Below are positions 9,771 through 40,035 of a stretch of DNA of 45,959 bases, in pieces. The notes beneath the pieces are model-generated. The model was not told where the DNA came from. It did no database searches and saw only the letters and a program-made list of their open reading frames with translations. Source of the DNA: a virus; IMG/VR virus record IMGVR_UViG_3300009528_000009. The stretch is one strand, 5' to 3'. Made by a program: the position numbers and the translations under genes. How positions within the stretch are numbered: position 1 is the first letter of the stretch; every line of letters begins with the position of its first letter.

Positions 9771-10445
9771 ATGAACAGAATCATTACACCGTACAAATCA
9801 GTACAAAAAGTTCTTATCGGTGTGCCGTTTGGACGACCCCAGGCTTTAATGCCTAGTCGTGCTTGGGTTGCACTGATTGTAAGTGCTTCAATAAATCCTA
9901 ACTATGTAGTAGTAGTAAAATATGCTGATGCAGCTTCTGTTGAAATTAACAGGGAACTCATTGTTAACACAGCTCTTGAGAAGAACTGTGATTGGTGTTT
10001 GATGATAGATACTGATATGAGCTATCCACCTAATCTCTTAGATGTGCTTATATCCAGAGACAAGGATGTAATTGGAGTGCCATATTACAGTCAAGGTTGG
10101 AATGATGAGACAAAACAAAGCACTGTCACGCCAGTTATTTATGATTATGATGAAAAGCAAAATTGGCATAGATGGGAGGAAGTTAAAAAGACTGAACCAT
10201 TTAAGGTAGAAGCAGTAGGGATGGGAATAATTCTCATAAAAACAGACGTATTCAAACGACTAAAACGACCTTGGTTCTTTGTCTCTACCTACGAGGATGA
10301 AGCGACTATTCTTCCTGTGGGAGAGGATATAAAATTTTGTATGAAGTGTAAGGATGCAGGAATTGAAGTATGGGTTGATCCTACATTTGAGGATAGCATT
10401 GGGCATTGGCATGGATATGGATTTAGCAAAAAGGATTGTAGATGA
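9771..10445 (+). CDS. GT-A fold glycosyltransferase (DxD = DTD), paralog 1
   Basis: Contains CDWCLMIDTDMSYPPNLL...VIGVPYY...GMGIILIK..VF..L..PWF...GEDIKFC. Clearly paralogous to 10442..11113. Confidence 0.75.
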   Translation: MNRIITPYKSVQKVLIGVPFGRPQALMPSRAWVALIVSASINPNYVVVVKYADAASVEINRELIVNTALEKNCDWCLMIDTDMSYPPNLLDVLISRDKDVIGVPYYSQGWNDETKQSTVTPVIYDYDEKQNWHRWEEVKKTEPFKVEAVGMGIILIKTDVFKRLKRPWFFVSTYEDEATILPVGEDIKFCMKCKDAGIEVWVDPTFEDSIGHWHGYGFSKKDCR

Positions 10446-11113
10446 GTAAAGTTCTCATTGGCATTCCCTTTGGACAATCTCAATCTATGATTCCTCATCA
10501 GGCTTGGACAGCTCTGATTGTTAAGGCTTCTGCAAATCCTAATTATACTGCATGTGGAGAATATGCTACTGCTGCTTCTATTGGTTTCAATAGAGAATAC
10601 ATAGCTGGTAGGTCTTTGGAGAAGGGATGTGACTGGTGCTTGATGGTTGATACTGACATGAGTTATCCAGATAACTTGTTAGATGTTCTCATGTCCAGAG
10701 ATAAAGATGTCATTGGTGTACCATACTATAGTGGAGTGTGGTCGCCTACAGGAACTAAAATTGTACCTATTCTTTACAACTATAATGAGAAAAAGGATAG
10801 TTGGGTTAGGCAAAAGAAGGTTGAGCAAACAGAACTGTTTAAGGTGGATGGAATGGGTGGGGGTGTAATGCTTATAAAAACAGATGTGTTCAAGAAGCTG
10901 GATAAGCCTTGGTTCCTTCATGGTAAGCATGGAGATAAAACTCATATTATGGGTGAGGATGTGTATTTTTGTTCAAAATGTAGCGATGCAGGAATAGACA
11001 TATGGCAAGACCCTACATTTGGTGATAAGGTCAAGCATTGGCACATGTATGGATATAGTAAGAAGGATTGTAGTGAGGGGGGAAGTACACAACGGCTTCC
11101 TATTCCTACTTAG
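10442..11113 (+). CDS. GT-A fold glycosyltransferase, paralog 2 (tandem duplicate)
   Basis: Same motif string (CDWCLMVDTDMSYPDNLL, GEDVYFC). ATGA overlap with paralog 1. Confidence 0.75.
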   Translation: MSKVLIGIPFGQSQSMIPHQAWTALIVKASANPNYTACGEYATAASIGFNREYIAGRSLEKGCDWCLMVDTDMSYPDNLLDVLMSRDKDVIGVPYYSGVWSPTGTKIVPILYNYNEKKDSWVRQKKVEQTELFKVDGMGGGVMLIKTDVFKKLDKPWFLHGKHGDKTHIMGEDVYFCSKCSDAGIDIWQDPTFGDKVKHWHMYGYSKKDCSEGGSTQRLPIPT

Positions 11114-14855: not shown

Positions 14856-15062
14856 ATGTCTCCGTATACAAGGAAAGGCAAAGTTGTATATAAAAAGGTT
14901 GATGGGCTGAAGAAGAAGGGTAAGGCTAAAAGTGTGGTGAAGGCAAAACGCTATATGAATTTGCTATACGGAGTTGAAAGTGGAAAATGGAAACCGACTG
15001 GAAAACGTGCTAGAGATGTGCAGAAGTATGGTAGTGCTTGGAAGGGTGGGAGGAAAAAGTAA
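14856..15062 (+). CDS. Highly basic small protein (68 aa)
   Basis: ORF track entry with a TAGGAGG RBS. Lys/Arg-rich. Confidence 0.65.
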   Translation: MSPYTRKGKVVYKKVDGLKKKGKAKSVVKAKRYMNLLYGVESGKWKPTGKRARDVQKYGSAWKGGRKK

Positions 15063-16759
15063 TGGCTAGAGAGAGTGTTCACGATAAGTTAGTATATTGG
15101 AAGTCTCAGATACGCAGGGGAATATCATATCAGCAGAAGTTTGGTGAGTCAAAGAAGTGGAAGGACTATCATGGTTACTACTATGGGAAGTATAAGACTG
15201 AGGTGTATGCAGTTAATAAAGTGTTCAGTATCCTGCGTAGTCTTATTCCTCGCATCTACTTTCGCAATCCTAAAGTATTAGTGAGTCCTACAAGACCAGA
15301 GCTTGAAGAACGAGCATTTGTAGTACAGGCTGTGGATAATCTGTTGATAAAGCAGATGTTGATGAAAGAGACGATTAAGAAGATTGTGCAGGATGCTTTC
15401 TTCTGCAACAGAGGCATAGCTAAGATAGGATATGATACACAGTATGGAAGTGTACCTGCTGAGATGATGAAAGAGCCTCCAACAGAAGAAGCTATTGAGT
15501 ATGATGTGAGTGTGCAGCCTGGAATGCCTTGGGTGCTGAGAGCTAATCCTGAACATTTCCTTGTACCTTGGGGAGTAGCCTCGTTGAAGGATACGCCTTG
15601 GGTAGCTCATAGAGTAGTGAGGCTGCTCAGCGATGTCAAAAAGGATCCTATCTATGAGAATACTACTAAGTTGAAAGGTGGATTAGTCAGAGAGCTTAGG
15701 GGTATGAAGGACAAAGAAGCAGGCATCAGTGAAGTTGTTAGAGGCTCTCAGGACGAAGCAATCAAGGAATATGCTACTGCTGAGGAGGAGTGGGTTGAGA
15801 TATGGGAAATAAGGGACTTGAAACGAGGACAAATACTAGCTCTGAACCTCGACCATGATAAGTTTTTGCGTAGGCCAGTAAGTGATGAACTGCAGAAGGA
15901 TGGCTCACCCTTCGAGGACATTTGCTTCAATCCTGACAATGATGTGTACTGGGGGCCTTCCGACATGCGCATATTGGAGCCTTTACAGATGGAACTTAAT
16001 GAGACTCGTACTCAGATGTCTAAACATAGAAAGATTAATGTACTAAAGATTCTAATGGACTCTGGTAAGTTCACTCCTGAACAAGCACAAAAACTTATGA
16101 GTGGAGATGTTGGCACAATAGAACTAATACCTGAGCTTAGTAGAGATAGTGTAATTCCTCTTCAGATAGGTGAGCCGGTTCAGTTGAGAGCAGATGCTAT
16201 GGATATTGAGAAGGATATAAGAGAAACTGTGGGGTTCAGTAGACTAGCTGAGGGTGCTGAGTCAGTTGCGCCTCGTAAGACTAAGTTTGAAGTACAGGAA
16301 ATGGGGCAAGGTCATTGGATTAGGATAGATGAGAGAAGGGATATAGTGGCAGACTTCCTTGTGAGGACGTTGGAGAAAGTAAATAAGATTATTTTTGAGA
16401 AATGGGACACAGGACGAGTTGTGCCTCTGGTTGGCCCTGATGCTTCTATTCATTGGGTACAGTTCACGGGTAGAGAGCTAGAGGGTGAGTATGACCTCTC
16501 GATAGATATTGATACAGGTAGACCTGTAACGACTGAGGTTAAGAGGAGTGAGGCGTGGGAGCTACTTGAACGACTAGGAGCAAATGAAGTTGTTCTTCAG
16601 CATCTTAACATAAGAGAGTTACTAAAGAATGTGCTGAAGCTATATGATTGGATAGATACAGATAGAGTGCTATTGGCACAGGAGGCTCAAGCAGGAGGAA
16701 TGCCTGCACAGGTTGAAGGGATGGGTGAGTTTGCACAAGCATTTAGAGGGAGACGATGA
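15062..16759 (+). CDS. Portal protein (putative)
   Basis: 565 aa. Start ATG in TAATG follows GGGAGG. Size and position upstream of scaffold and capsid fit a portal. Confidence 0.6.
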   Translation: MARESVHDKLVYWKSQIRRGISYQQKFGESKKWKDYHGYYYGKYKTEVYAVNKVFSILRSLIPRIYFRNPKVLVSPTRPELEERAFVVQAVDNLLIKQMLMKETIKKIVQDAFFCNRGIAKIGYDTQYGSVPAEMMKEPPTEEAIEYDVSVQPGMPWVLRANPEHFLVPWGVASLKDTPWVAHRVVRLLSDVKKDPIYENTTKLKGGLVRELRGMKDKEAGISEVVRGSQDEAIKEYATAEEEWVEIWEIRDLKRGQILALNLDHDKFLRRPVSDELQKDGSPFEDICFNPDNDVYWGPSDMRILEPLQMELNETRTQMSKHRKINVLKILMDSGKFTPEQAQKLMSGDVGTIELIPELSRDSVIPLQIGEPVQLRADAMDIEKDIRETVGFSRLAEGAESVAPRKTKFEVQEMGQGHWIRIDERRDIVADFLVRTLEKVNKIIFEKWDTGRVVPLVGPDASIHWVQFTGRELEGEYDLSIDIDTGRPVTTEVKRSEAWELLERLGANEVVLQHLNIRELLKNVLKLYDWIDTDRVLLAQEAQAGGMPAQVEGMGEFAQAFRGRR

Positions 16760-18005: not shown

Positions 18006-18995
18006 ATGGCTTACTTTAGAGAAGTCATGGATGACATGTGGATTTCCACATGGCGTGAGCAGAAGAAAGAAGTGATAGATAACCTCTTTGATGCAACCCC
18101 CTTCTACTTCTGGATGAAGAAAAAAGGGAGAGTAACTGAGGATTACACTGGTGGAGAATATCTCACTGTTCCACTCCTACGTGGCAGGAATGCTACTGTT
18201 GCCATGTATCAGAAAGGTGGAAGTATTCCAATTAGTCAGACTGACAAGCTCGATGTGGCTAGATACGACTGGAAATACATGGTTGTAGGTCTGATTAGAT
18301 ACATGATTGATGAGCAGATAAATCGGGGCAGGGCTAAGATTATCAGTAAGATGCAGGTAGAGCTTGATGTGGCAAAACTCTCTATGATTGAGCTGATGGA
18401 GACATATCTTTTTGGTGATGGTTCTGGAGAGAGTGGACTCGCATTTAATGGTCTGAAGATTATCTGTAGTGATACTCCTCAGACAGCAGTGGCGTCTCCT
18501 GTAACTGATGTTGGTGGAATTGACTCAAGTAGTAGTGGTAATGAATACTGGAAAAATGTCTATCGAGACATGGATACTGATGGCCCTGTAGTCTCTCTAA
18601 ACATGATGGAGAGTTGGAAATATGCTTTCCGAGAAGCAAAGAATGGAGCTGACAAGCCTGACATCTTCGTCACTACTGACCAAATATTGGATTGGTATGA
18701 TGATGAATGTATAGACATCAAAGCTATTGTCAACAAAAGTTTAGGTGATGCTGGCTTTGAGAACTTGACTTGGCGTGGGCTTCCAATCATCACTTCTCCA
18801 TCTTGTACGGCTGGACATCTCTACATGCTTAATACCAAGTATCTCAATTGGGTAGCACAAGCAGGGGCAAACTTTGACATGACAGAATGGAAAGTGGCTC
18901 CTGATACACTGGACAGGTATGCACAGATAGTGGTAAGTGGTAATTTGGTTACGAGTAAGCGAAATGCACAGGCAGTTGTGTTTAATATTGACTAA
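18006..18995 (+). CDS. Major capsid protein (putative)
   Basis: 329 aa. Follows the scaffold gene and is followed by a hairpin. The composition is typical of HK97-fold capsid proteins. Confidence 0.6.
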   Translation: MAYFREVMDDMWISTWREQKKEVIDNLFDATPFYFWMKKKGRVTEDYTGGEYLTVPLLRGRNATVAMYQKGGSIPISQTDKLDVARYDWKYMVVGLIRYMIDEQINRGRAKIISKMQVELDVAKLSMIELMETYLFGDGSGESGLAFNGLKIICSDTPQTAVASPVTDVGGIDSSSSGNEYWKNVYRDMDTDGPVVSLNMMESWKYAFREAKNGADKPDIFVTTDQILDWYDDECIDIKAIVNKSLGDAGFENLTWRGLPIITSPSCTAGHLYMLNTKYLNWVAQAGANFDMTEWKVAPDTLDRYAQIVVSGNLVTSKRNAQAVVFNID

Positions 18996-30095: not shown

Positions 30096-30992
30096 ATGCT
30101 ACCAGAGATAGAACAGTTCATACAAAAGCATTACAAAGAGTTGGGCTGGCATAACCTTTCAAATTTAATCAGAGATAAATTTCAAGCTGATATATCTGAT
30201 GATGCTATCCGAAAGTTATGTATGAGACGGGGATGGGCGAAACCATCCCTTTTTGATGACGATAACTATGAACGTAATCTCTTTATGGGTTGCGCTCACA
30301 TACCCTACCACGACAAGGAATTACACAAAGTCTTTATAAAGTTTCTCAAGTTTTTCAAACCCCACAAATTGTGGATCATGGGTGACTATCTCGACTGGTA
30401 TCATATTAGCAAATATATAAAGAACCCTCGAAAGAGTGGAAAGTTGCAGGAGGACTTAGACCTTGCTGGTGAGATGCTAGATGAACTTGTCTCCTATGCA
30501 GACGAAGTATTGTTTATGGATGGAAATCATGAGGACAGACTACAAAGGTATCTTCATCAATATCCAGAACTATATGGTCTGCGCTGTCTAACAATTCCAG
30601 CTCTGCTTGAGTTGCACAAAAAGGGAATAAAGTATTGTGGAAGGTATCGAGACAAGCCAACTACTCATCATGGTTTTGTTATTCATCACGGTCTTTGGTC
30701 TAGCATTGTCTCTGGCGTGACAGCTAAGAAACACTTTACTGAGTGGGGTGGGAATGGCATTATTGTCCACTGTCATAAAGGTGGGAATTATCTAAAGCAG
30801 CAACTTGATGGCATACATGGCTACTATGAGGGGATGTGCATGTGCAACCTAGAACTTGAGTACACTAAGGCTACAACCAATTGGATTCAAGGTTGGAGCA
30901 TAGCCTACTTTACTAAGAAAGACCTATTCCATCTAGAGCAGATTCCAGTAGTTCAACATGAGTTTTTATTTCAGGGAAAGTTATTTAGTTGA
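30096..30992 (+). CDS. Calcineurin-like metallophosphoesterase with N-terminal HTH-like extension
   Basis: Motifs CAHIPYHD, GDYLDW, GNHEDR, HHG and VHCH appear in canonical order. Confidence 0.7.
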   Translation: MLPEIEQFIQKHYKELGWHNLSNLIRDKFQADISDDAIRKLCMRRGWAKPSLFDDDNYERNLFMGCAHIPYHDKELHKVFIKFLKFFKPHKLWIMGDYLDWYHISKYIKNPRKSGKLQEDLDLAGEMLDELVSYADEVLFMDGNHEDRLQRYLHQYPELYGLRCLTIPALLELHKKGIKYCGRYRDKPTTHHGFVIHHGLWSSIVSGVTAKKHFTEWGGNGIIVHCHKGGNYLKQQLDGIHGYYEGMCMCNLELEYTKATTNWIQGWSIAYFTKKDLFHLEQIPVVQHEFLFQGKLFS

Positions 30993-35548: not shown

Positions 35549-36040
35549 TTATATCAGTAGTGAATTAAATAAACTAAATGTACTTGCTTCGGGAGTTCTT
35601 CCTAAAAGACTAGTTATATATTTTTGAGACTTTTTCCAAGCTAATGAAACAACTTCATGTCTTAGGTGAACTTCATTTGTAGATTCAGTATGCTTAAACT
35701 TTCTACATTCAAAGGGACGTGCTGAGTAAATCTCACATTGACCCTTAACATAAAATATACATTCTCCTCTTGGATCAGCAGGAGTTTCAGTACCAGGTGT
35801 AGCTGACTTTAGAGCAGGAGATAAAACAAAAATCTCTTTATCTTCTACCCACCAATTTACAGCTAACTTAGTTTTGAATAGCTTTGAAATAGATATGTTT
35901 AGCAATGTTGCAACATCTTTGATTTCTTTTGGTAAGAACCATCCAGGACAATACATGCATGCATTTTTGCACTTATTACAATTACAGTTTGTATCTTTTG
36001 TGCTATATACCTTACTGATTTCCTCTGTGGTAATTGCCAT
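35549..36040 (-). CDS. YkgJ-family Cys-cluster protein (CxxCxxCC-type zinc/iron-chelating domain)
   Basis: Contains CNCNKCKNACMYCPG, followed later by GECIFYVKGQCEIYSARPFECRKF. GAGGAG RBS. Confidence 0.65.
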   Translation of the reverse strand: MAITTEEISKVYSTKDTNCNCNKCKNACMYCPGWFLPKEIKDVATLLNISISKLFKTKLAVNWWVEDKEIFVLSPALKSATPGTETPADPRGECIFYVKGQCEIYSARPFECRKFKHTESTNEVHLRHEVVSLAWKKSQKYITSLLGRTPEASTFSLFNSLLI

Positions 36041-36242: not shown

Positions 36243-36473
36243 ATTCCATTTTTCTAACTTAATAAACTTTGCACTGTTAATTATAAGACCAAACAGATTT
36301 TCTAAGCTTTTCACACTATCACAATTCACATTAGATATTCCTGCAATAATTCCACAATGCTTACATACAAGTTGTAAATCTATTCGACCATCAAAATGCT
36401 GACGAAACCAACTAGGTGCTACCCATTCATGGTTCCCGTTATGCGTTACTACTGGTCGTTCAGAACACTTCAT
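36231..36473 (-). CDS. Hypothetical protein (80 aa); 3' end overlaps the RNA 5' end by 12 nt
   Basis: ORF track entry with an AGAGGTGAAA RBS. Confidence 0.55.
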   Translation of the reverse strand: MKCSERPVVTHNGNHEWVAPSWFRQHFDGRIDLQLVCKHCGIIAGISNVNCDSVKSLENLFGLIINSAKFIKLEKWNGGA

Positions 36474-36474
36474 T

Positions 36475-36912
36475 CTATTTCACCTCTTTATGATATTTCC
36501 AATACTTCTGCAATATCAACTGTACTAAGTTCCTGGCATACTCCCTGTTCGATGCAAAAAACACATGCACACCATACTTCACAGTCCACGAAACAAACGA
36601 ATTAACCACTACTAGTGGACTCACCTTGGTATATGAGGGTGGAGTAAGCAGACTAGACAGACTTGCCTCAATCACTACTGCAGCATAGTTAAACTTTGAC
36701 AGTCTCATCATTTCTTTCTCAAACCTTACTCGTCTAGCTCCACACGATCCATACGCATCTTCCTTGGTCTTGCGCTCAACAGCAACATCATTCTCCAGTC
36801 CGAGTATAGAGTAATCGCCAGTCTTCAATGTCTTTGTCACACTAGTCTCAAACTCATATGGCAATTGTTCACGTGTGTCAATGACTATAGTAAGTTTAGG
36901 CTTTTTCGTCAT
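36475..36912 (-). CDS. ERCC4/XPF-Mus81-type nuclease domain protein (putative junction resolvase)
   Basis: VIDTREQ...GDYSI...VERKTKEDAY matches the GDxn-ERKx3D signature. Confidence 0.6.
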   Translation of the reverse strand: MTKKPKLTIVIDTREQLPYEFETSVTKTLKTGDYSILGLENDVAVERKTKEDAYGSCGARRVRFEKEMMRLSKFNYAAVVIEASLSSLLTPPSYTKVSPLVVVNSFVSWTVKYGVHVFFASNREYARNLVQLILQKYWKYHKEVK

Positions 36913-37339
36913 TGTCTCTCTGTGTAATAATAGTAGTAATACCTCCTTTGCTTTGAATATCAACTAACATCCTACCGCAATCACCATACGGGGCGACCCA
37001 AATCAATGTCTTACGATGCATAATAAAGTCTCCTCCCTTGTAACCCGTGTAGGTTGAGCCATCCGCGTCCTCAAACATTTTAAGTAAGTCTCTTACAACT
37101 ATAGGTTCCGTATCCCATCCATAATCAAGAGATAAATCCTCATAGTAACCTCTGTAGCTTTCTAAATCACAAGGATTATCATCGGTAAAATCTAGCTTAA
37201 TAGTATTGAATGGTGGTTGAGCTTTCAAGAGCAAAATTACCTCACCAAGAGTTTTAATTGGCTTCTTCGCAAACTCATCTTGCTTTGCTTTCGCTAGCAT
37301 TGCATAAAACATGTTCTCAGTATCCTTATTTTTCATCAT
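36896..37339 (-). CDS. Hypothetical protein (147 aa)
   Basis: ORF track entry with a GGGAGGA RBS. Confidence 0.65.
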   Translation of the reverse strand: MMKNKDTENMFYAMLAKAKQDEFAKKPIKTLGEVILLLKAQPPFNTIKLDFTDDNPCDLESYRGYYEDLSLDYGWDTEPIVVRDLLKMFEDADGSTYTGYKGGDFIMHRKTLIWVAPYGDCGRMLVDIQSKGGITTIITQRDNDEKA

Positions 37340-37733
37340 TCCTCCCTTTCAGTTCCTCCAAATCCACAAACACATTTCCATCCTCTACATGTGCTTCAAT
37401 ACTTTGCTTCTCACCCTTGCCTAAATATCCTTCAAGCAACGTGCCAGGTATGCCAACAACCGCACCTTTGTTCTTAATACTGCGATAGCCTAGAAACTTC
37501 GCCTCCTCTGTAAATGCCAACAACAACTTACTTCCCTTTTTGTGTATATAACAATATACTTTTTCATCCAACTTCAACTGCTCCCTCAGTCCTACAGAGA
37601 TATAGATATATCCCGATCCTTTCTTACACCTCCCTATCGTAACCTTATCGCCACTTCTATGAGGATGAAGCAACTCATACTCACCACCTCTCATTTTTTG
37701 TCTGAACTCTCTCGTATATAATTTATCCGACAT
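37326..37733 (-). CDS. Hypothetical protein (135 aa)
   Basis: ORF track entry. Confidence 0.6.
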   Translation of the reverse strand: MSDKLYTREFRQKMRGGEYELLHPHRSGDKVTIGRCKKGSGYIYISVGLREQLKLDEKVYCYIHKKGSKLLLAFTEEAKFLGYRSIKNKGAVVGIPGTLLEGYLGKGEKQSIEAHVEDGNVFVDLEELKGRNDEK

Positions 37734-37903
37734 ATTTTTTGATACTCTTCCCTTCTATCAAATACTGTCTTCACTTTCTGGTTCCACGCCTTCACATCCA
37801 TCACCACTCCATCTTTCATCAACATTACACCATGTTGTGTAACCGTTGCTCCCTTAAAATTATTCCTGAGCTGTCTATCACACTCCTTGATGGTTCGAGA
37901 CAT
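37691..37903 (-). CDS. Hypothetical protein (70 aa)
   Basis: The internal ATG lies in a TAATG overlap with the upstream gene. Confidence 0.5.
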   Translation of the reverse strand: MSRTIKECDRQLRNNFKGATVTQHGVMLMKDGVVMDVKAWNQKVKTVFDRREEYQKICRINYIRESSDKK

Positions 37904-38253
37904 TACTGGTCTTGCTTCTCTCCACCACACTTTTCTGCCTCCATTAACTCAGTTGCTCTCATCTTCATTATCAACCCATACCCTGCTACATCTCTCCAAT
38001 TCTCCACATCATCACTACGTCCCACTGCTATCCTAAACAACTTATCAACAATTCTAGTCACTGCTAACATATCTCCATACTGCTCTAGTGCTATGCCATT
38101 TGGATACAGCAACTTCAGCACTTGCCCTGACTGCTTGTATGACTCTCCATACTGAAGATGCTTTGCTGTCAATAACGTAGCAAGTTCCTCAGCTTCTTCC
38201 AGAAATACATGGTTGAGATTTACATGGATGTCCTCAAGTGATAGCTTTCGCAT
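37903..38253 (-). CDS. DUF1599-like (nucleotide-modification-associated domain 1 / all-alpha MazG-like) protein
   Basis: KHLQYGESY...LAVTRIVDKLFRI...ENWRDVAGYGLI matches the K...YG.s...R..DK..R...D...Y pattern. Confidence 0.45.
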   Translation of the reverse strand: MRKLSLEDIHVNLNHVFLEEAEELATLLTAKHLQYGESYKQSGQVLKLLYPNGIALEQYGDMLAVTRIVDKLFRIAVGRSDDVENWRDVAGYGLIMKMRATELMEAEKCGGEKQDQ

Positions 38254-38566
38254 TTTCCTCCTCCCACTTCCTCATCACCCCTGCAAATGTCTTTGGCTCC
38301 AGATACACTACCTTAATCTTCTTACGAAGGGCGAAGGCCATGCCGAGATCAAAGATAGTACCGAAACTACGTTGATCCCAAATAATATGTATTTCATCTG
38401 CTTGCTCAAGTAGGGAACGATTATGCTTACACACTCCTAGTGCATCTAGTTCCTCATGGTCATCAAAAGCAGGTAGTGCAACTACATGTCCTTTCTCTTC
38501 TAACTCAAAGACATGTGCTTCCATTTTCTCCTTATACTGAGTCGAACCAATTATCAACACCTTCAT
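38234..38566 (-). CDS. Nucleoside 2-deoxyribosyltransferase-like protein
   Basis: MKVLIIGS is the N-terminal strand. ADEIHIIWDQRSFGTIFDLGMAFALRKKI resembles aD.v.....S.Gt.fElG.A.algK. Confidence 0.5.
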   Translation of the reverse strand: MKVLIIGSTQYKEKMEAHVFELEEKGHVVALPAFDDHEELDALGVCKHNRSLLEQADEIHIIWDQRSFGTIFDLGMAFALRKKIKVVYLEPKTFAGVMRKWEEENAKAIT

Positions 38567-39399
38567 CTATTATAGTCCTCCCAAGCCTTTTCTATTGTTG
38601 AGTACTTCCTATAATATCTGAGGTAAATAAATCGTCTGAACTTCCTGAGTGCTAGTGTCTGTTTGTATAGCATGGGAAACGGATCAAAGCCCATTGAATT
38701 GATAATTTCACAGCGATACATGTTCTCTTCTGATGTAGTGTCAAATCCCATTAGGACGTAAATCATAGCTCTAATTTTATGTTTTTGTAACAACTTCATA
38801 CCTTGCAGAATTTGTTTCTCATCTCTCATTCTATCCCAAGCGAACTTAGGCTGATTCTTCCAATTAGTAAGTTTGATCCACCAAGCCTTTTCATCATCAA
38901 GCAATCTGAGGTCATTACCGCTATTATCAATCACATCCACTTGAGCATGAAGAATCTCGCCAAATGTATGCTTCCAATTTGGGTCATAAAACATATTGTT
39001 ATTCAAAAGCTCAATTGTATCAAACTTTTCATCATGGAATGTCCATATGGAATGATGTTGTTCTTCTTTGGGTAGCAAGGGAACTTTACAGAATTTGCAT
39101 TTACGTTTACAATCCCGAAATGTATATCCTAATGAGTGATCGAAATTGAATAATGAATAATCTGGTCTGCAACTCTCTATATCTGTTGGTAAACATTCCT
39201 GTGGATCATACCCAATTCCACCAGTCCAATCAGTCTTCTCTCTTGTACTCTTCTCAAACAACCATGATCCATAAGTTATATCAGCCTTCCATAGTGGCAT
39301 ATTTAACTTAACTTCATCTCCATGTTTTTTATAATAAGTGGAAACTTTCATCAAAGCTAAGTTATGCTTTGGCGCATCAGTTAATAGAGATACTTTCAT
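38563..39399 (-). CDS. Radical SAM enzyme (CX3CX2C) with N-terminal B12-binding-like Rossmann segment
   Basis: YTFRDCKRKCKFCKV contains C-x3-C-x2-C. The N-terminal HNLALMKVSTYYKKHGDEVKL resembles the class-B radical SAM N-domain. Confidence 0.6.
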   Translation of the reverse strand: MKVSLLTDAPKHNLALMKVSTYYKKHGDEVKLNMPLWKADITYGSWLFEKSTREKTDWTGGIGYDPQECLPTDIESCRPDYSLFNFDHSLGYTFRDCKRKCKFCKVPLLPKEEQHHSIWTFHDEKFDTIELLNNNMFYDPNWKHTFGEILHAQVDVIDNSGNDLRLLDDEKAWWIKLTNWKNQPKFAWDRMRDEKQILQGMKLLQKHKIRAMIYVLMGFDTTSEENMYRCEIINSMGFDPFPMLYKQTLALRKFRRFIYLRYYRKYSTIEKAWEDYNR

Positions 39400-39600
39400 C
39401 TATACCTCTTTCCAAAACTTGTAATAGGCAAATCGAAGGTCAGGAGATGCTTTATAACATTTGAATAGCCATTTGGAGTAGTAAGGAAAATCAGCTTCAG
39501 GGATAAATGAATGAACTATGGGAATGGCAATCGTAGATAAAGGTGAATCCATAGTGACTGTCTTCTTGAAACCGTGCATAGTCAATAAACATTTAGTCAT
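39400..39600 (-). CDS. Hypothetical protein (66 aa)
   Basis: ORF track entry with a GAGGTATAG RBS. Confidence 0.55.
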   Translation of the reverse strand: MTKCLLTMHGFKKTVTMDSPLSTIAIPIVHSFIPEADFPYYSKWLFKCYKASPDLRFAYYKFWKEV

Positions 39601-39860
39601 TATCTATACCTCGTCTTCAACCCCATCACATTATTTGCCGGCAATATCTCGGCAGTATCTGTGCCAGGCACAATAATCACCTTCTGCTTCTCCTTCACTT
39701 CAATACTCCAACCCTTCTTTATATACACATCTCTAATAGTCTGATACGCCTTCTCAGCAATAATAGGACGAGGAAAGTAGGTAGAGTCCACTACTTTCCT
39801 ACCAGTCAGGTGTAGAATCTTACGTAACGGGCCTTTACGAAGGACTATTTTGGCTTCCAT
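39600..39860 (-). CDS. Hypothetical protein (86 aa)
   Basis: ORF track entry. Confidence 0.55.
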   Translation of the reverse strand: MEAKIVLRKGPLRKILHLTGRKVVDSTYFPRPIIAEKAYQTIRDVYIKKGWSIEVKEKQKVIIVPGTDTAEILPANNVMGLKTRYR

Positions 39861-39861
39861 A

Positions 39862-40035
39862 CTACCAATCTGGCCATAAAACAGATGCTACACCTATCAA
39901 CCCAAAGGTTAGACAAGTGACTCCCCAAACAATCACAATTTCCCAGTAATCAAAAACATTTCGAGTTGTCTGGGTTCCAGCGATAGTCAATAGGAAAACT
40001 CCCGTCACAAATAACCAAACTGCTGCAAACTTCAT
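39862..40035 (-). CDS. Two-TM small membrane protein (holin candidate)
   Basis: MKFAAVWLFVTGVFLLTIAG...IVIVWGVTCLTFGLIGVASVLW. GGAGGTG RBS before the internal ATG. Confidence 0.45.
   Translation of the reverse strand: MKFAAVWLFVTGVFLLTIAGTQTTRNVFDYWEIVIVWGVTCLTFGLIGVASVLWPDW

Follow-up and report, generated by a model that had tools for sequence, protein, structure and literature searches.

A compact radical SAM enzyme of phages from anoxic habitats and its recurrent deoxyribosyltransferase-like neighbour

Radical S-adenosylmethionine (SAM) enzymes, abbreviated here as rSAM, have been connected with phage DNA modification in Pseudomonas phage M6. Its gp53 is an isomerase that acts on N-alpha-glycinylthymine and is, according to its authors, the first rSAM enzyme shown to help install a DNA modification (PMC8989533). 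This spore photoproduct lyase-like enzyme is encoded in a fixed cluster together with a 5-hydroxymethyldeoxyuridine (5-hmdU) DNA kinase, an aGPT-Pplase and a pyridoxal phosphate (PLP)-dependent decarboxylase (PMC8989533). The locus described here is located in the IMG/VR virus record IMGVR_UViG_3300009528_000009. The stretch that was analyzed, referred to as the window, comprised 45,959 bases of a 47,886-base contig and covers the genome of a tailed phage almost completely; the source habitat of the phage is oxygen-free. Three overlapping open reading frames (ORFs) on the minus strand of the window encode an rSAM enzyme, a protein resembling nucleoside 2-deoxyribosyltransferases (NDTs; the protein is called Ndt-like below) and a helical protein of 116 aa, and the coordinates given for them in an earlier note on this DNA were confirmed (Table 1). 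As in phage M6, the rSAM enzyme is phage-encoded and has DNA as a possible substrate. However, the M6 pathway is multi-gene, and its cluster of kinase, aGPT-Pplase and PLP-dependent enzyme was not found in scans that spanned nearly the whole window (the tail-gene stretch at ∼20.4-28.5 kb in part). A link to an M6 gp53-type pathway was rejected. Among the top 50 fold matches of the modeled rSAM protein there was no spore photoproduct lyase and no QueE structure either.

In architecture, the closest described enzymes are the class B rSAM methyltransferases, represented by MgmA (9ccb) and TsrM (6wte/6wtf). The model of the window enzyme suggests an arrangement like theirs: a Rossmann-type unit at the N-terminus and, behind it, a partial rSAM barrel that carries a CX3CX2C motif. 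The patterns RGCxxxCxFC, DNN after strand 2 and YVLxG...E are typical of this class B group. In contrast to MgmA and TsrM, the window enzyme has 278 aa instead of 417-540 aa, is without the C-terminal domain and gave no match to the B12-binding domain PF02310; judged from model and profile, class B membership fails on this last domain. With respect to the pairing of genes, an rSAM enzyme beside a nucleotide-binding or Ndt-family enzyme reportedly occurs in OxsB/OxsA (oxetanocin) and BlsE/BlsM (blasticidin S), where BlsM is said to be an Ndt-family CMP hydrolase. We treat these pairs as leads only. They reportedly belong to bacterial antibiotic pathways with further enzymes (a glycosyltransferase, an HD-domain phosphohydrolase), whereas such extra pathway enzymes are absent here and no sequence relation goes past the superfamily level. 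BlsE was present among the fold matches of the window rSAM (7vob, E 2.7e-3).

The gene neighborhoods of the Ndt subfamily showed that the link between the rSAM and the Ndt-like gene is real and specific and that the two have been joined repeatedly. An ORF of the rSAM family was present in 22 of 63 viral Ndt-subfamily loci, nearly always adjoining the Ndt gene and mostly at a spacing of -38 to +12 bp. When these loci were made non-redundant at 90% identity, an rSAM gene was found at or beside the Ndt gene in 16 of the resulting 43 groups: at position -1 in seven, at +1 in seven and at +2 in one, while one more group had a canonical B12-binding rSAM upstream. The rSAM partners were of types 1 (the type of the window enzyme), 1b and 2. 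The similarity matrices of the two proteins co-varied, with a Mantel rho of 0.29 that was reached in 19 of 2000 permutations and is diluted by two miscalled Ndt ORFs. The claim of the earlier note that the rSAM is linked to a deoxyribosyltransferase-fold protein is thus borne out by independent loci, by both gene orders and by co-variation. If the two were unrelated accessory genes that happen to be neighbors in a variable region, this would fit the rSAM indel that lies beside the Ndt-like gene in the clade of this phage (see below) and the fact that each gene usually occurs without the other. We hold it to be highly improbable, however, given the 16 non-redundant loci, the two gene orders, the several rSAM subtypes and the co-variation. 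Of the 2.9 million viral contigs in IMG/VR, a few hundred to a few thousand are matched by the rSAM proteins, so that far less than one locus of chance adjacency would be expected, which makes chance a very unlikely explanation.

The one canonical case is a 466-aa rSAM (PF02310 and PF04055) encoded just upstream of an Ndt-subfamily gene on a single viral contig (L194:2674-4074, plus strand). It suggests that the association of the Ndt-like partner goes beyond the compact rSAM type.

The earlier note had read all three ORFs, and possibly the ORFs flanking them, as one island. Conservation did not extend this far. On the rSAM side, the Ndt-like gene adjoined in 3 of 35 non-redundant sets of close homologues, and the 116-aa gene was seen only in this phage's own contigs. 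The 116-aa family has ∼490 relatives in IMG/VR, and the 80 loci that were fetched contained an rSAM gene in no case (0/80) and an Ndt-like gene in a single case, which is a close relative of this phage. Ndt-like and 116-aa genes occurred together only in the close relatives L054, L365, L366 and L367. In L366 and L367, homologues of an 86-aa ORF and of the 66-aa ORF (82% identity) abut the Ndt gene with no rSAM in between, and the 116-aa homologue is located one small ORF further downstream of the Ndt gene. In L054 the 86-aa ORF (90% identity) is joined directly to the Ndt-like and 116-aa genes, and the equivalent of window positions 38571-39601, with the 66-aa ORF and the rSAM gene, is missing. 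The examined stretch of L365 contained no rSAM gene. As the examined stretches of these close relatives show no rSAM gene, the adjacency of the Ndt-like and 116-aa genes in this clade can be regarded as inherited gene order, and beside the Ndt gene the rSAM has been gained or lost precisely, as a single gene. The 66-aa ORF had no family match in Pfam, PHROGs, NCBIfam or PADLOC; besides the close relatives, no other fetched locus contained it or the CxxCxxCC protein encoded at 35549-36040. Flanking ORFs were not conserved with the rSAM/Ndt-like pair, and the pair loci had no third gene family in common. The overlaps between the ORFs are short: the rSAM stop and the Ndt-like start share 4 bp (ATGA), and the Ndt-like and 116-aa genes share 20 bp, with GGAGGAGG immediately 5' of the ATG of the latter. 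Such tight overlaps occur throughout the minus-strand early module, so that on their own they do not mark the three genes as a functional unit. The locus is a cassette of two translationally coupled genes with the 116-aa gene as an unrelated passenger, and a three-gene island is not conserved. The neighborhood survey hence upheld the recurrence of rSAM and Ndt-like genes and removed the 116-aa gene from the set, which corrects the original reading from three genes to two and takes the DUF1599 label (see below) out of it.

According to the model in the earlier note, the rSAM, the Ndt-like and a DUF1599-like protein, perhaps with products of the flanking ORFs, would build a non-canonical deoxynucleotide for the phage DNA. 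The three genes are indeed contiguous and overlapping, the Ndt-like and rSAM genes are truly linked, and phage NDTs have been tied to non-canonical base pathways such as that of dZ (bioRxiv 10.1101/2025.10.22.683976). Nevertheless, we regard this model as very unlikely. By hidden Markov model (HMM) the 116-aa family is not DUF1599, its sampled loci were without rSAM, no third family was common to the pair loci and the rSAM gene behaves as a single-gene indel between close relatives. In addition, no deoxynucleoside monophosphate (dNMP) kinase, DNA polymerase, thymidylate-synthase-like gene, dNTPase or base-synthesis gene was found in the nearly complete genome, where precomputed matches and our own scans together spanned nearly the whole window and covered the tail-gene stretch at ∼20.4-28.5 kb in part. 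In the absence of genes for nucleotide synthesis, it is unlikely that the phage makes a new dNTP ahead of replication. Family scans of the window detected none of QueC, QueD, QueE, FolE or the DpdA transglycosylase, and the precomputed Pfam matches and our own scans contained no aGPT-Pplase, 5-hmdU DNA kinase, dUMP hydroxymethylase or PurZ family. The earlier note was therefore right that the locus matches no characterized phage base-modification pathway. A link to the dZ pathway was rejected, as no PurZ- or DatZ-type domains were found.

The 278-aa protein was assigned to the rSAM enzymes from its motifs, its PHROGs match and its predicted structure. In an alignment of 34 homologues, the three cysteines of the CX3CX2C motif (C97, C101 and C104) were invariant, as were a fourth cysteine, C230 (within RC230), and the motifs TDAPxHNL, HxSIW, LLNNN, FAWD and YVLxG. 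CX3CX2C was also retained in the divergent subtypes A4 and A5. The protein matched phrog_9298, "radical SAM domain protein", with an E-value of 2.6e-43. The match to Pfam PF04055 was limited to the Cys motif and scored 14.9 bits against a cut-off of 29.5, and the family consensus likewise stayed under the gathering cut-off because the family is too divergent for this model. NCBIfam and PADLOC gave no match for the rSAM, the Ndt-like or the 116-aa protein, and sequence searches of the PDB with the single rSAM sequence and with a profile returned nothing meaningful. The AlphaFold (AF2) model of the enzyme had a pLDDT of 90.2 and a pTM of 0.83. When this model was compared with the PDB using Foldseek, the B12-dependent glutamine methylase MgmA was first (E 5e-6, TMq 0.63) and TsrM second (TMq 0.58-0.60), followed by BioB, SuiB, PylB, BlsE, LipA and viperin-like enzymes, and also by SkfB and EpeE; the great majority of the top 50 matches were rSAM enzymes. 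E-values past the first match were weak (1e-3 or worse), and for MgmA and TsrM the TMt was only 0.33-0.44, with no signal at the sequence level. We conclude that the protein is a real, very divergent and compact rSAM enzyme, the model of which shows a minimal rSAM core. The view of the earlier note that it is a compact, uncharacterized rSAM enzyme agrees with the invariant motif, the confident model and the fold matches. SAM would be cleaved by its predicted [4Fe-4S] cluster.

The N-terminal part of the protein had been described in the earlier note as a B12-binding-like Rossmann segment. The overall architecture supports this in part, with MgmA and TsrM as the top Foldseek matches, but the unit itself (approximately residues 1-45, strand-helix-strand-strand) is truncated and consisted of only three strands and one helix in the model, and PF02310 matched neither the protein nor the family consensus. 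In an hhalign comparison with the canonical B12-binding rSAM of L194, the Cys motif alone was aligned. Going by the model, binding of cobalamin appears doubtful.

As the enzyme is compact and without an extra substrate-binding domain, it could also serve mainly to consume SAM, as the SAM-degrading enzyme of phage T3 does, and thereby disable restriction or BREX-type systems that need SAM. In a variant of this idea, the rSAM would destroy a nucleotide-derived immune signal and the Ndt-like protein would process the nucleoside product. The accessory nature of the gene, present or absent among close relatives, and its location in a region where DNA methyltransferases and other genes of an anti-restriction type are frequent are in line with such counter-defense. 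On the other hand, invariant residues are also numerous away from the SAM and cluster motifs (for example TDAPxHNL, HxSIW, FAWD and RC230), which argues for a specific substrate, and the protein had no match in PADLOC, known collections of anti-defense proteins not having been searched. Both variants are conjectural and have, in our judgment, a slim chance of being correct.

The Ndt-like protein could be placed in the NDT/DNPH1 superfamily at the family level. The window protein itself matched PF05014 (nucleoside 2-deoxyribosyltransferase) with an E-value of 1e-5 and 26.0 bits, under the cut-off of 28.8, and DUF4406 more weakly. The consensus of the broader Ndt subfamily reached 37 bits with PF05014, which is over the cut-off, and several homologues had a precomputed PF05014 match; at this level the deoxyribosyltransferase-like label of the earlier note holds. 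A profile of the family found NDT and DNPH1 chains in the PDB at E 0.02-0.04. The conserved core SxGTxFDxGMAFAxxK was aligned with GTAFEVGCAAALNK of the T. brucei NDT (GTAFEVG), and D73, which was present in 93 of 94 family members, occupied the position of the catalytic Glu nucleophile (GxxxExG) of that enzyme, so that the catalytic Glu is not present. In alignments to DNPH1 and NDT, S67 fell on the Ser that binds phosphate, D73 on the catalytic Glu and K82 on a Lys; for human DNPH1, the placement of S67 and of D73 is presumed. The consensus of the broader subfamily also contained an RGGS loop like that of DNPH1. Compared with DNPH1/Rcl (2'-deoxynucleoside 5'-phosphate N-hydrolase) and the NDTs, the family aligns over the N..ADxV... 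and (S/D)xGTxx(E/D)xGxAxAxxK core, but the window protein is shorter (110 vs. ∼140-175 aa) and has Asp in place of the catalytic Glu. From these alignments we infer that the protein may, in the manner of DNPH1, bind or hydrolyze (deoxy)nucleoside monophosphates, its nucleophile being altered. The pairing with such a protein offers a concrete biochemical handle on the system, namely a nucleotide ligand. Tblastn searches of GenBank phages with the Ndt-like protein and with the consensus of the broader subfamily gave no match.

The rSAM enzyme itself belongs to a large family that has rarely been seen outside viruses, occurs in phages of anoxic habitats and has no model in Pfam or NCBIfam. An initial search returned more than 600 homologues, nearly all of them unnamed metagenome proteins without a precomputed Pfam match. 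In a profile search of 1.84 billion representatives, 2346 clusters (clustering at 50% identity) were found at E<=1e-3 and 345 at E<=1e-30, and almost all of these proteins were 280-330 aa long. IMG/VR contained 45 matches to the close subtype and at least 300 and at least 570 matches to two more distant ones. Across 185,579 species genomes (one per species), only nine rSAM loci were detected. Each of them was in a metagenome-assembled genome, and the lineages, most of which are anaerobic, were Clostridia, Desulfobacula, Bacteroidales, Omnitrophota, Saccharibacteria and Elusimicrobiales. Distant relatives with 26-30% identity were found in cultured or named phages of Clostridium tetani, Bacteroides, Phocaeicola, Oscillospiraceae and Methanomassiliicoccales, where the GenBank annotation reads "radical SAM domain protein" and nothing more. 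By hhalign, type 1, to which the window rSAM belongs, was homologous to type 1b (A5) over the full length (probability 100%) and to type 2 (A4) over the rSAM core (98.4%), the N-terminus of type 2 being different. Our literature searches returned no description of the family or of the rSAM/Ndt-like pair, and nothing on phage rSAM anti-defense proteins of this family. No member of this large viral family is known to have been studied so far. An oxygen-sensitive, single-gene enzyme that is spread over the phages of gut, sediment and digester anaerobes could reveal a new nucleic-acid chemistry or counter-defense strategy, and Clostridium phage phiCT453B and the Bacteroides phages BKO1-TP3 and LoVEphage, which carry distant relatives, may serve as cultured entry points.

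Most rSAM homologues stood alone in a replication/recombination module, often beside DNA methyltransferases. Their recurring neighbors were Phage_rep_O, DnaB or a primase-helicase, RusA, an exonuclease, SNF2 and ResIII helicases, AAA_24, PD-(D/E)XK nucleases and DNA methylases. The genes found most often within three positions of the rSAM in 151 non-redundant loci were those for N6/N4 DNA methyltransferases (19 loci), C5 cytosine methyltransferases (14) and PAPS-reductase-like proteins (eight). A DNA methyltransferase was present at this distance in 33 of the 151 loci, compared with 6 of 71 control loci centered on the 116-aa or Ndt families (Fisher p 0.014; C5 methyltransferases alone, p 0.04). 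These neighbors also bear on the idea that the rSAM acts on protein or RNA, by radical methylation or another change of a side chain, and that its position among replication genes is incidental. MgmA methylates a protein glutamine, SuiB, SkfB and EpeE among the fold matches are peptide-modifying enzymes, and rSAM enzymes with macromolecular substrates typically have a minimal partial barrel. Yet no peptide or protein partner recurred at the rSAM locus, where the recurring direct neighbors were the DNPH1-like protein and the C5 and N6/N4 methyltransferases, and the fold matches past the first were weak. Action on protein or RNA is in our estimate rather unlikely.

A C5 methyltransferase gene was located directly upstream of a type 1b or type 2 rSAM gene in eight independent loci (L256, L261, L315, L326, L328, L329, L330 and L355), in three of them with a 4-bp gene overlap; the rSAM is located at about 4000 in most. 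The rSAM family might thus have a second recurrent partner.

It also fits a further possibility, in which the rSAM would be a stand-alone, oxygen-free modifier of DNA bases that might, for example, methylate or oxidize cytosine or 5-methylcytosine by radical chemistry, as a counterpart of the TET/JBP type. The DNPH1-like partner would then keep the modified or a competing dNMP out of the nucleotide pool. We consider this unlikely; if true, it would represent a new and widespread class of phage DNA modification by one enzyme of ∼280 aa.

The reading that we favor, tentatively and at somewhat less than an even chance, is that the rSAM acts on DNA or a deoxynucleotide with the DNPH1-like protein as a helper. 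The enzyme would reductively cleave SAM and apply the 5'-deoxyadenosyl radical to a substrate that is found in every host, as it usually stands alone. The small open barrel, the neighborhood of replication and DNA-modification genes and the nucleotide-type partner point to DNA after replication as the most probable substrate, or else to a deoxynucleotide, and an unusual, anti-restriction type of base modification would result. The Ndt-like partner would bind or hydrolyze a (deoxy)nucleoside 5'-monophosphate and thus clean or feed the nucleotide pool of the rSAM reaction; it looks like an optional helper rather than an obligatory subunit.

Several observations weigh against this assignment. The substrate is proposed on indirect grounds, and the two top fold matches methylate substrates other than DNA, which are a protein in the case of MgmA and free tryptophan in the case of TsrM. 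The modeled N-terminal unit looks too small for cobalamin, which counts against a methylation chemistry of the class B type. The enrichment of methyltransferase genes near the rSAM is modest, suggestive but not decisive, such genes are common in phage replication modules anyway, and this phage has no recognizable DNA methyltransferase. The change from Glu to Asp may have left the Ndt-like protein with ligand binding only. Its gene was present in only 5 of the 151 non-redundant rSAM loci, more than 90% of the rSAM homologues being without it, and L054, L365 and L366 have retained the Ndt-like and 116-aa genes with no rSAM in the examined stretches. As relatives keep the Ndt-like gene with no rSAM in these stretches and most rSAM genes occur without the Ndt-like gene, neither gene appears to need the other.

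Another possible role of the Ndt-like protein is the clearance of a by-product. It would then act as an N-glycosidase on 5'-deoxyadenosine, which every rSAM reaction releases and which is inhibitory, or on a related nucleoside derived from SAM, and would help any rSAM that it accompanies whatever the substrate of the latter, being needed only in hosts with poor clearance of 5'-deoxyadenosine. NDT-superfamily enzymes cleave N-glycosidic bonds. Also consistent with clearance are the several rSAM subtypes beside which the Ndt-like gene occurs, including one canonical B12-binding rSAM, the small number of rSAM loci with the partner and the fact that no other gene is common to the pair loci. However, the DNPH1-type Ser and the RGGS loop suggest a 5'-phosphorylated ligand, whereas 5'-deoxyadenosine has no phosphate. 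Furthermore, the Ndt clades track the rSAM clades, which fits a specific partnership better, and the close relatives keep the Ndt-like gene with no rSAM in the examined stretches. We rate clearance as fairly improbable.

The third protein had been labeled DUF1599 (nucleotide-modification-associated domain 1, NMAD1) in the earlier note. This label has to be dropped, since every HMM test failed: PF07659 (DUF1599) gave no match at E<=0.1 for the window protein and none at E<=1 among 51 family members or for their consensus. DUF6378 (PF19905) matched 6 of the 51 members weakly. In PHROGs, the protein matched phrog_1485 and the C-terminal part of a PNK-type PHROG. Its AF2 model consisted of four helices with a pLDDT of 81 and a pTM of only 0.55, and searches of the PDB, including Foldseek with this model, returned nothing. 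In BFVD, the best fold matches were uncharacterized phage proteins (E 7e-5) and helical domains of phage PNKP-phosphatase/HAD proteins (E 0.016-0.08), whereas DUF6378 and NMAD1 proteins appeared at E 0.5-1.3 only; one of these weak matches, an NMAD1 protein, had an E-value of 0.65, a probability of 0.54 and a TMq of 0.35. In common with DUF1599 and DUF6378, the protein is small, helical and phage-encoded and has a K..YG ... R..DK..R ... E...D..GY pattern, and it differs from them in matching the uncharacterized phage proteins and the PNKP-phosphatase/HAD helical domain better. It may be a distant cousin of the DUF6378/NMAD1 families, of which it was a member by no test that was run; small helical proteins of its family are widespread in phages. 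Longer ORFs that seemed to contain the 116-aa domain as a fusion were rejected, as they gave weak RsmI_C matches only and are probably artifacts of ORF extension.

In some large phage contigs, a gene of the 116-aa family was located near genes for an RNA ligase (PHA02142 OB-fold and RNA_ligase) and a helicase (Helicase_C_2 and weak ResIII), at L082:5414-6481 and L082:7723-9363, and similar genes were found beside it in L056, L102, L114 and L123. Together with the resemblance to the PNKP-phosphatase helical domain, these neighbors hint at a role of the family in nucleic-acid end repair.

Table 1. Features of the window, with position, strand and basis or context.
Feature	Position	Strand	Basis or context
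Radical SAM (rSAM) enzyme, 278 aa	38563..39399	-	ORF; phrog_9298; model
CX3CX2C motif CKRKCKFC, C97/C101/C104, aromatic F103 before third Cys	39088..39111	-	translation; residues 97-104
NDT/DNPH1-superfamily (nucleoside 2-deoxyribosyltransferase-like) protein, 110 aa	38234..38566	-	PF05014; profile matches
Active-site-like motif SFGTIFDLG (S67, D73)	38342..38368	-	translation; alignments
All-helical protein, 116 aa, phrog_1485-like	37903..38253	-	four-helix AF2 model
66-aa ORF	39400..39600	-	directly upstream of rSAM; upstream edge of indel
Large terminase	4952-6298	+	structural module
Portal	15038-16759	+	structural module
Major head protein	18006-18995	+	structural module

The structural genes of the phage are encoded on the plus strand, and the minus strand carries the early/replication module with a PD-(D/E)XK exonuclease, a Sak4-like annealing protein, a single-stranded DNA-binding (SSB)-like protein, an M15 peptidase, an ERCC4 nuclease and a primase/helicase. 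The rSAM, Ndt-like and 116-aa ORFs are located inside this module. GenBank phages had no DNA similarity to window positions 36400-40000.

At 35549..36040 on the minus strand, a Cys-rich protein of 163 aa matched the Pfam model of the CxxCxxCC domain, a putative chelator of zinc or iron (22.4 bits, cut-off 23; E 2e-4). It was not present in the examined stretches of L365 and L366, which are also without the rSAM, nor in any other fetched rSAM locus, and it is possibly a second metal-cluster protein specific to this phage. Two tandem, overlapping and paralogous ORFs of 224 and 223 aa were found between the terminase and portal genes (9771..10445 and 10442..11113, both on the plus strand). They matched Pfam Anp1 (GT62, a GT-A-fold glycosyltransferase) with 32.2 and 33.9 bits against a cut-off of 28.8, matches that were graded only weak or faint among the precomputed ones. 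Glycosyltransferase-like genes are unusual in a head/packaging module, and these might glycosylate virion proteins or, speculatively, DNA. Finally, the ORF at 30096..30992 on the plus strand, which directly follows that of a 1107-aa tail-region protein, codes for a calcineurin-like phosphoesterase (Metallophos, 23.4 bits, cut-off 21.5; E 9e-5).

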